Source: Spirochaetales bacterium (lineage in GTDB: Bacteria > Spirochaetota > Spirochaetia > Treponematales > UBA12059). From it: 64,000 bases of DNA. The stretch spans positions 1 through 64,000 of the forward strand of contig JAFGJV010000004.1 in NCBI GenBank assembly GCA_016928955.1. The letters are read 5' to 3'. Made by a program: the position numbers. This document shows positions 42,001 through 45,000 of this stretch, one piece after another. How positions within the stretch are numbered: the stretch's first letter is position 1; every line of letters begins with the position of its first letter.

Positions 42001-45000
42001 TGTGGTCGCTGGACGATGTTGTGCGCTGCATAGAGCTGAACTACAGCCGCAATTTCAGCCTGGAATTTTTCGTGGGCAAGTGCGCCAGCAACACTTCGGA
42101 TTTTTCCAGGCGCTTCAAGGAGAGGGCGGGGTGCCCCCTATTCGAGTACATAAACCGCCAGCGCGTAAAACGGGCGGCGGCCCTGCTCAAGGCAACATCC
42201 AGGCCCATCATCGAGATATCGGAAGCCGTGGGCTATAACAACTTGTCGTTTTTCAACCGCTATTTCCTCCGCATCATGGGCATGAGCCCACGGGATTTCC
42301 GTTTATCCTCCGCAAGATAGTGCCTGATTCGCAGGCCAAATACGCAAGATAGTGCAAGACCCCAACGCGTAACCGGTTTACGTTTGTGCATAGGCGCCAG
42401 GGTAGCCAGGCATCACTATGGCACGTCCAGATGCCAGCCACGGGCGGCGCGTTGGAGGCGACAATGAAGGAACAAGCGGAAAAGGGCGACGCTCGTGTGG
42501 ACTCAGGCAGGGTACAGCTGGACGCCGTGGTGGTGTTGGCGCGATCCGAGCTGAGCCCGGCCGAGGCCGACTCAGCCAGGACCGGGTCTGGCCTGCGCAT
42601 GAAGGCGGCACAGGGAGGCACCGTGTGGCTGGAAGCCGGCGGCGTGACGCTGGCCGAGGGCCGACTGGCCAGGAGAAAGGGCGTTACGTCCTTTGTGGTC
42701 AGCAAGGTATACGGAGAGGAGGCCGGACGATGAAAACGGGAAACGTGAACGACGCTATGGTCAGACTGCAGGTGGTGCTCGGGGAGCGGTGTTTGTCCGT
42801 ACGGGACCTGGGCACCGTGGGCGAGGGCTCCATCGTAAAGCTGGACGCCATAGCCGGCGAGCCCGTGGCCTTGCTGGCCGAGGGACAAACTGTGGCCTGG
42901 GGAGAGGTGGTGGTGCTTGACGAAAATTTCGGCATCAGGGTCACCAAGCTGGACAGGGGCTCGCTATGAGCGCGGGACCAGGTACGGTTTTGCCCCCCTT
43001 TATGGTGGGGCCGCGGGGCAGGGAACCCCTGCCGGAGCGCGTCAAGCTGTACGATTTCCGCCGGCCTGACAAATTCACCAAAGACCAGATCCGCACCATG
43101 CAGATACTGGCCGAGACGTTCGGAAAGCTGGCAGAGACGGCCTTGTCGGCAAAGCTGCGTACCCTGGTGGCCCTGGAGCTGGATACAGTCGACCAGGAGA
43201 CCTACGACGAGTTCACGGCTCCGCTCTGCGCTCCAACCGTGCTGGCAGTGGCGACCATGCGGCCTCTCAAGGGCCAGGCCGTGCTGAGAATCAGCATGGA
43301 CGCGGCTGACGCCATCCTGGAGCGAGCCTTCGGCTCGCAGGATGCGGTTTTGCCCGAGGCGTTGAAACGCGAGCTTACCGACATAGAGTGCGCCAGCATG
43401 GAACGGCTCATGCCTGCCTTCCTGAATCCCCTGGCCAGCGCCTGGGAATTCGCCGGAGCCCTGGAAACGGAGCTGGTGACTCTGGAGACCAATCCGCGCT
43501 TTTGCCAGATAGTGCCTCCGAACGAAATGATCATCATCACATCGTTCAGGCTGAAGGTGGGCGGCTCGGAAGGGCGCCTGGACGTGGTGTATCCCTTCCT
43601 GCTCCTTGAGCCGCTGATATCCAAGCTGTCGGCCAAGTACTGGTACTCGCGCCGAGTGCCCGAGGAAGATCGTCCCCTGGAAGCGACAGCGCGCGCCACG
43701 CGCCTGCCTGCTGAGCTGGTGTGCCCCGCGGGAAAAATCAGCGTGGGCGAGCTGTCGCGCCTGAAGAGGGGTACGGTCATCCCGTTACCCGCCCTGGACC
43801 AGGGCAGAACCGTACTCAGGCTGGGCGGCAGGGTCGTTGCGGTCTGCCCGGGTACGCGGAAGGACGGCGGTGACTGGACGGCGTGCGCCAACGGTAGCCA
43901 CGCGCAACGGCCGAATGGCGAAGGCGACGACACGCCGGCGGCGGTGGCCGCTGGCATCAAGGATGCCCTGTCGTCGCTCAAGTCCGGACTGGCTGAGGCC
44001 GTGGACGGACTGGGGAAGCGCATAGACGAGCTTAAAGGCAGCCAGGAGGACATGGCGGACCGCGTGTTCTACGGCCAGGCAGACGCCCAGGAACGCCGGC
44101 GCCCCTTCCAGGAACTCGGCGGCGCGGATGCCAAGGCTTTGGCCCTGTTCCTGGCCAACGAGAGGGCCCAGCTGTGCGCCCTGGTGTTGTCCCATCTGGA
44201 CGAGGCGGCGGGCGCGCGCGTGTTGCCCTTCCTGCCGGACGCGGCGCAGACGGACATCATACGCCGGGTGGCCCTGTTCGATGGCGCCCCCCAGGACGTG
44301 GTTGCCGAGGTGGACCGCGTGCTCGGCGTCAAGATGGCGGCCATAGAACGGTCCAGGGCCAGCCAGGGCTCCATGGGCCTGTCCAAGGCCGTGGGTATAC
44401 TCAGCCTGGTGCCTCGCGACACGGAGAAGCTGGTCATCGGGACCATGGAAAGCGCCAACGCCGAGCTTGCCGAGAGCATCAAGCGCAACATGTTCGTGTT
44501 CGAGGATATCGTCATACTGGACGACGAATCCGTGGAAGCCGTGCTCAACATGGCTGATAGGCAGGACCTGCTGGTGGCCATGAAGGTCATGGACGACAGG
44601 GAACGCGAGCGGCTGTTTGCCCGCTTTCCGGCGGCCGCGCGGGACGGGCTGCGGGCAGAATACAAGACCCTTGGACGGAAGCGGGTCCGCGAATGCGACG
44701 AGGCGGGCGCCCGCGTGGTGGCCGTCATCAAGGCCCTGGAGGAGGAAGGCCGCATAGGCATACTCCGGGCGGACGAAGGCTGAGATCAGGGCGTCAGAGG
44801 CGGCGCGGAACAAAGCGCGCAACCAAACGGTCCCTCCGCTGTCGAAGGATGGCGGAGGGTTTTCATTTATGGCATACGACTACACGCGCGACACCATAGC
44901 CGATATTCCGGCCCGCGGGGCCCTTTTGTACTGCGATATGCCCGCCCTGGGCATGGCCGGCGGATCGACAATCACCTACAAGGAACTCGAGCTTCAGTCC

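Follow-up and report, generated by a model that had tools for sequence, protein, structure and literature searches.

The window, a stretch of 64,000 nucleotides from a Spirochaetales genome, carries on its forward strand a module of four genes encoding an AraC-family regulator, two small FliN-like proteins and a protein that joins parts of FliM and FliG. The last of these, g00035 (42966..44783), is an open reading frame of 605 aa without internal stop and represents a natural FliM-FliG(MC) fusion paralogue. Its Pfam domains are FliM at residues 29-221 (43050..43628; 162.7 bits), a middle domain opening with a YDFxRPDKF extension, followed by FliG_M at 390-462 and FliG_C at 494-598 (44133..44759), where the MFVFED hinge is kept and EHPQ reads ERAQ. 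Between both parts lie a degenerate FliM C-terminal SPOA segment (residues 247-294, 43704..43847), which scores 18.9 bits with FliMN_C at a cut-off of 23.8 and shows a hydrophobic and glycine pattern conserved across 108 homologues, and a coiled-coil linker (residues ~325-374, 43938..44087), recognized by a helix in the structural model and a hydrophobic stripe, at the place where FliG has its FliF-binding N-domain. Alignment to E. coli FliG further reveals a degenerate torque helix at residues 555-568 (44628..44669). The genome's own FliM is 46% identical to residues 25-228, and its operon FliG is 36% identical to residues 379-604, the match beginning at 379. Reading frame, Pfam matches and these identities confirm the description in the genome-wide survey's note of a single polypeptide joining FliM, a degenerate SPOA segment and the middle and C-terminal domains of FliG. 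In the AlphaFold model (pLDDT 80, pTM 0.54) each domain is folded and residues 325-374 form one long helix; a Foldseek search with this model retrieved FliM and FliG structures from the PDB, with a TM of 0.9 to solved FliM middle domains.

The fusion gene is linked through ATGA overlaps to two genes encoding SPOA proteins, namely FliN-a (g00033, 42464..42733; 89 aa), which is degenerate, mostly basic and below the Pfam cut-off (21.3 bits, cut-off 23.8), and FliN-b (g00034, 42730..42969; 79 aa), which is acidic and reaches 66.8 bits with FliMN_C. These overlaps and scores bear out the earlier assignment of own small FliN-like genes upstream of the fusion in one operon. The same account, sound for the fusion and the FliN-like genes, had overlooked the AraC gene, a probable operator, a terminator and the coiled-coil linker. 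The AraC-family regulator (41619..42320), with an HTH_18 domain at its C-terminus, comprises 233 aa from a homologue-supported ATG (longest ORF from 41526). Its stop codon is overlapped by the distal half of a direct repeat, AAGATAGTGCC (42314..42324), which locus alignment and a genome scan mark as a probable AraC site. The proximal half found by locus comparison, AAGATAGTGCAAGA (42346..42359), follows 32 bp past the distal half and abuts the expected -35 region, while spacing across loci points to a -10-like hexamer TACGTT (42379..42384) 19 nt past the proximal repeat. At the operon end, a terminator scan identified an intrinsic-terminator-like hairpin of 12 pairs with a T run (44832..44865).

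Elsewhere in the window, contigs of two sequencing runs swap 239 bases at 37029-37269 for 60 others, and the depth there is raised, which suggests a small repeat or mobile element. A cluster of large ORFs lies on the reverse strand at 46586-51418, 51428-53224 and 53227-55332 (1610, 598 and 701 aa); the product of the first has no Pfam match above the cut-off. Four sludge runs of one study that are labelled RNA contain 54-63% of the sequence words. Cover is flat over 18 kb in three RNA-labelled runs and one unlabelled run, and DNA carry-over is therefore possible in the RNA-labelled runs, which consequently give no reading on expression.

Homologues of the fusion from independent sources are near full-length or partial (P0002-P0039), and 92 of the best 150 representatives at 50% identity are full-length two-part proteins, which argues against an assembly artefact. 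At a threshold of E<=1e-122, at which some matches are cut by contig ends, the fusion is present in 23 of the 41 further family genomes and in 34 of 250 further ones from the order, in agreement with its reported conservation in a subset of the order; none of the 68 sampled genomes of family f2 has a match at this threshold. Of 300 further genomes of the phylum, five have a full-length match, and 6/400 other spirochetes carry the fusion when three candidates per genome are scored. Even within one genus its occurrence is patchy (11/15), while one genome (G315) bears three modules. The named homologue records are spirochete MAGs, with one cluster member labelled Deltaproteobacteria, and no cultured host is found among them. 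One fusion copy, in G281, is frameshifted and appears in split form, and immediately upstream of that module lies an additional fliM (L182:9789-10921, reverse strand) that opens with LSQDEIDALL and is itself frameshifted at an A run; both frameshifts are probably sequencing errors. A protein from a 2-kb contig that begins like a canonical FliM (P0017) is a suspected chimera and was kept out of the evidence.

The fusion is under relaxed but purifying selection, with dN/dS values of 0.17-0.33 over the whole gene in ten pairs; seven pairs of canonical fliG give 0-0.03. In a quick tree of the FliG part with long branches, 34 fusions group with two longer forms (SH-aLRT 93); the equally quick and long-branched FliM-part tree splits the fusions and places P0027 and P0029 beside canonical FliM. 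The FliM-FliG fusion may have more than one origin. Metagenomes contain further C-ring fusions (P0258, P0296, P0302, P0309, P0318, P0335, P0336, P0346, P0351, P0354, P0270, P0313), with layouts such as FliM-SPOA-SPOA-FliG(MC), FliM-DUF4116 repeats-FliG, FliM joined to a full FliG with its N-domain, and a reversed FliG_M-FliM.

The canonical switch set is also present in the genome, as previously stated, but on another contig and not beside the fusion: canonical fliM and fliG lie on C18, and a second fliG, whose product also lacks R281, on C8. The FliG part of the fusion is nearer to the operon FliG (35-36%) than to the C8 FliG (26%). A canonical fliN had also been listed; its product, however, comprises 379 aa, starts with LSQDEID and is hence probably of the FliY type. 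Judged from gene order and N-terminal sequences, the ORFs of C18 appear to make up a complete flagellar cluster that includes a single motAB and this FliY-type gene. Across the family, 37 of 42 genomes have one MotA match and one has none; the remaining four have two, explained by gene splitting, a fragmentary match or a distant copy. The genome studied here has one MotA, its second PF01618 match sitting in an ExbB/ExbD-like cluster, and G315 with its three modules has one full-length MotA. No dedicated stator, MS ring or export genes were found beside the module among 37 distinct loci, and the module is not a second flagellar system.

Next, we compared the contacts of the C ring in 108 fusions, a set in which 88 of the 92 full-length representatives are joined by 19 homologues and the window protein; residues are numbered after the aligned E. 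coli proteins FliG and FliM. According to passages of two studies, FliG contacts the stator primarily through R281, D288 and D289, and secondarily through K264 and R297 (PMC6079164, PMC4030992). The triad R/K281, D/E288 and D/E289 is present in 30/30 canonical FliG proteins (the 30 best-scoring loci of 41 phylum genomes) versus 1/108 fusions; with all 92 representatives, including the omitted P0256, P0276, P0282 and P0346, the count of intact triads is 2. Position 281 is R in 2/108 and acidic in 47/108 fusions, P295 is often R, and in the window fusion R281, D288 and D289 correspond to A557, A564 and E565. The torque helix is the segment of lowest retention, with 13% canonical residues; the overall figure is 41%, and the MFxF hinge ranks highest with 92%. 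Neither a torque-generating FliG part nor a complete switch module, as the survey's note had put it, is supported by these values.

The inputs of signal and anchor are affected as well. The CheY tether LSQxEID occurs in 97/101 canonical FliM proteins versus 0/28 genome-locus fusions, a count that omits eight loci in which the motif search gave no anchor; remnants are seen in 3/108 fusions. The R94 equivalent is R in 99/101 canonical FliM proteins, 37/108 fusions and 4/28 genome-locus fusions (A85 in the window), R94 being the second CheY contact of FliM in the available part of PMC7957414. The FliF-binding N-domain of FliG is absent and a coiled coil stands in its place; alignment thus upholds the earlier statement that the fusion has neither the CheY-binding FliM N-terminus nor the FliG N-domain. 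The GGxG loop of FliM, which we take to be FliG-binding, reads GSQD in the window fusion and is intact in 54/108 fusions. Near-clade fusions have drifted on either side of the FliM-FliG contact, at GGxG as well as at EHPQ. Their losses co-vary (odds ratio 4.6), which we set aside since the sequences are kin and not independent.

Several neighbouring observations concern other proteins with altered rotor parts. A 622-aa FliM-FliG fusion whose start resembles a CheY tether and whose torque helix is intact (P0256) is a candidate for a working fused rotor. Stand-alone FliG C-domain proteins of ~195 aa in several genomes of the family (L235:3072-3641, L237:1761-2357, L238:2032-2625, L240:1548-2132) have a likewise degenerate torque helix. 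Contig C49 of genome G000 (L239:708-1331, reverse strand) encodes a 207-aa protein with an N-terminal part resembling the FliG torque helix and a weak similarity to the cytoplasmic loop of MotA (12/29 identical, pairwise E 0.001).

Other surfaces are well kept, as assessed for the inter-protomer contacts from motifs. YDFxRPDKF is near-invariant in the 108 fusions and aligns to E. coli FliM 38-46, within a segment (residues 34-45) described in passages of a recent preprint as binding the FliN dimer of the preceding protomer (10.1101/2024.04.30.591856). E125, Q128, R160, G195, R208, E211 and MFxFED are kept in 88-100% of the fusions. K264 is kept in 94/108 and R297 in 90/108 (K540 and R573 in the window). 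In Vibrio, passages of PMC6079164 report that single alanine changes at the three primary stator residues did not slow the motor, and that the equivalents of K264 and R297 mattered for CCW rotation. Together with the retention of both residues, the CCW data speak against a fully torque-dead FliG part.

Regarding the small proteins, FliN-b has E110, V111 and V112, as well as V/I113, in 30/30 sequences; this EVVV motif is the FliH-binding patch of FliN in the available part of PMC6248999. FliN-a is SPOA-like without this patch, and in a small local search its profile from 34 homologues matches FliN-b proteins and E. coli FliN. The charges of the mostly basic FliN-a and the acidic FliN-b would suit a heterodimer. 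Two longer relatives (P0270, P0313) have extra SPOA domains within the same chain, which argues that the fusion and the FliN-like proteins act as one complex.

The linker is conserved as a pattern. Large hydrophobic residues occupy positions 331, 335, 338, 342, 346, 349, 353, 356, 363 and 367 in 81-100% of the 108 fusions, forming a stripe of 3-4 spacing that includes Q360, and at most positions between such residues stay below 25%. Three homologues share an 11-residue deletion that preserves the register. Modelled in three copies only, residues 320-384 are predicted to form a parallel bundle on the hydrophobic stripe, with a score of 0.64 compared with 0.00 for the best of 3 controls, a pLDDT of at least 76 and at least 87% of contacts shared between runs. 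The score mark is reached by 20/30 solved one-chain pairs and 1/23 single chains and is only a rough guide for three copies with a custom alignment. The model supports self-association of the linker and does not imply a stoichiometry. The whole connector between FliM and FliG comprises 71-125 residues, by estimate long enough to span from ring base to middle in a 160-A ring.

As a next step, we considered the regulator. Of the 37 loci, 32 have an AraC gene next to the module, upstream in 28 and downstream in 4, and it is the sole conserved neighbour besides the two small genes; where it is missing, in five loci, the upstream sequence is no longer than 661 bases. Within the family, it occurs in 19/23 fusion-bearing genomes, the four misses having a module on or close to the end of its contig, versus 1/18 fusion-less genomes, that one being 57% complete. 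Its copy number tracks that of the fusion (3 and 3 in G315). The direct repeat scores >=21 in 26/32 loci versus 0/270 control stretches, with a period of 32 bp in 20; the consensus was drawn from the same loci that were scored, and the spacing to the -10 element lies outside the score. Here, TANNNT follows exactly 19 nt after the repeat in 23/26 loci, while a consensus promoter scan did not pick up the TACGTT element. Scanning the genome with the repeat gave 45 bits at the window site and 21.9 at the next best, and thus no second comparable site that would indicate a wider regulon. AraC activators typically have a site abutting the promoter. Both elements known from AraC-activated operons, the HTH gene and the abutting repeat, are present, and the AraC protein probably binds the repeat and activates the promoter of the three genes. 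The model of the AraC protein (pLDDT 92) matches AraC-family proteins in Foldseek, and its N-terminal domain is shortened and variable among homologues. As to deviating loci, one (L149:6522-7187, G327) has ~600 extra bases between araC and the first small gene, with no repeat upstream there. Two others (L173 and L174, from G345 and G351) combine the module with a more distant AraC gene and lack the repeat, suggesting a swapped regulator.

What can be seen in the sequence is an operon with a co-inherited AraC gene and repeat, lost contacts to stator, FliF and CheY, and retained motifs of ring assembly. One possible explanation, which we favour tentatively and place just short of an even chance, is that the module forms a dominant-negative C-ring mimic which, once induced under AraC control, works as a clutch on the native motor or blocks its assembly. 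Binding of AraC to the direct repeat would switch on the three genes, and the fusion and both FliN-like proteins would fold into a pre-joined protomer, two or three of which might be bundled by the coiled coil without FliF. Such an arc of protomers could join or capture native FliM, FliY, FliG or FliH via the kept surfaces. Since the mimic FliG presumably cannot take torque from MotA, either motors would slip or the building of new C rings would halt, with less swimming as a result. The mimic could enter new rings, or finished rings if FliM exchanges, or trap native subunits in the cytoplasm. According to passages of PMC12153297, such exchange takes place in E. coli, whereas B. subtilis shows none, which makes entry into finished motors uncertain. 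This mimic fits best with the combination of kept surfaces for polymerization and FliH binding, lost inputs of power, anchor and signal, self-bundling and separate induction. Nevertheless, several points speak against it: K264 and R297 are kept, and single triad changes were harmless to motor speed in the Vibrio passages (PMC6079164); the drifted GGxG and EHPQ may insulate the near-clade fusion from native partners; a brake of four genes is costly beside EpsE or YcgR; and none of the neighbours conserved across the 37 loci is a gene for biofilm formation or chemotaxis. If the mimic does operate, an araC gene downstream of the fusion could activate itself, splitting a population into swimmers and non-swimmers.

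As the main alternative, the mimic might join the ring, pass on some CCW torque and remain blind to CheY, thereby locking direction or tuning bias for smooth runs or unequal poles. We consider this unlikely, although the lost CheY tether and the frequent loss of R94 point this way, as do the kept equivalents of K264 and R297 with their CCW-selective effect in Vibrio (PMC6079164, in part). In line with this, passages of PMC7957414 report that E. coli FliM without its N-terminus and with R94S/L gave no clockwise rotation unless acetate was added, and passages of PMC7225975 present the asymmetric rotation of spirochete poles as chemotaxis-independent and unexplained. However, most spirochetes swim without the fusion, given the 6/400 noted above from three candidates per genome, the three primary charges are lost together and often reversed at 281, and there is no FliF anchor for torque transfer to the rod.

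It appears rather less probable that the protomers assemble off the flagellum as a scaffold or sensor, reporting the status of C ring or export, perhaps through contact with FliH or the AraC protein. ExsD, which restrains ExsA, offers a comparison for the restraint of an AraC protein. In favour of a scaffold or sensor, AraC is the only conserved neighbour with a matched copy number, its N-terminal domain is short and variable, one homologue shows a weak ExsA_N match (E 7.9e-5, below the cut-off), and in the four loci with araC downstream it lies on the same strand, compatible with feedback. Against it, the lone repeat site of the genome is the one upstream of this operon, and thus no output of AraC beyond the module itself is visible; moreover, the ExsA_N match occurs in 1 of 11 AraC proteins scanned, and no ExsA-type structure is among the Foldseek matches listed for the AraC model.

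Structural reinforcement, in which FliM and FliG, stapled covalently and cross-linked through the coiled coil, make a loaded ring stiffer or larger and thereby aid motility, would agree with the kept assembly motifs, the predicted oligomerization of the linker and the structural role that C. jejuni FliN gained after duplication (abstract of PMC6946799), but seems improbable, as protomers lacking the torque charges would dilute stator contacts and the gene is patchy within a genus. A decaying duplicate without function, as might be read from the long branches, the dN/dS well above that of canonical fliG and the frameshifted G281 copy, is scarcely credible and already largely refuted by purifying dN/dS in all ten pairs, ~90 intact clusters below 50% identity, a conserved operon, repeat and spacing, and losses focused on specific interfaces.

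Compared with the canonical C ring, for which passages of 10.1101/2024.04.30.591856 give a FliG:FliM:FliN ratio of 1:1:3, the module has the same domains apart from FliG-N and the CheY tether, and keeps the MFxF hinge, the FliN-binding FliM extension, the FliH patch and the FliM and FliG folds of PDB structures. In contrast, it joins FliM and FliG in one chain, has a coiled coil for FliG-N, has lost the triad and forms a stand-alone operon with its own AraC gene, added to a full canonical set. The fusion is neither a canonical FliM nor a canonical FliG, since the defining features of both fail; with the FliM equivalog TIGR01397 it scores 185 (cut-off 219.6). Spirochete FliG1, in the passages of PMC7225975 on B. 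burgdorferi, is likewise an extra FliG paralogue, but corresponds to a separate gene, here on C8, while the fusion carries FliM. The EpsE clutch of B. subtilis (PMC3000366) and the YcgR brake of E. coli (PMC13432727) resemble the module, as far as the available passages go, in the proposed regulated uncoupling or slowing at FliG; however, EpsE is a glycosyltransferase and YcgR a c-di-GMP binder, and both are foreign folds gripping the rotor, whereas the module consists of rotor parts with a presumed effect. The FliM/FliY/FliN C ring of C. jejuni also has duplicated SPOA proteins beside FliY, but these paralogues belong to the working ring, and the abstract of PMC6946799 describes no FliG fusion or dedicated regulator. 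Engineered FliF-FliG fusions join rotor proteins covalently as well, but are laboratory constructs tying the MS ring to FliG (PMC11481574), while the natural fusion drops the FliF link.

The four-gene module is real and conserved, and apparently undescribed. In the literature searched, consisting of main texts and few subscription papers, we found no description of a natural FliM-FliG fusion; supplements of genome papers may list the gene, the database label of P0035 already names both halves, and an automatically named Atlas cluster has 130 members. It is conceivable, at somewhat less than an even chance, that the module stands for a new class of motility regulator, in which a transcriptionally switched, self-oligomerizing counterfeit C-ring protomer shuts down or re-biases the motor by co-assembly. 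The brakes and clutches in the passages reviewed are foreign proteins gripping the rotor, and a brake made of a disarmed subunit under its own regulator would, if true, be a different principle. With stator, FliF and CheY contacts shed and assembly motifs kept, the ~90 divergent fusions represent a natural experiment that maps the surfaces of the C ring to their jobs. A pre-joined FliM-FliG protomer independent of FliF could make assembly and switching of the C ring testable in vitro. Finally, if the module biases one pole, it would bear on the question of asymmetric rotation in spirochetes.
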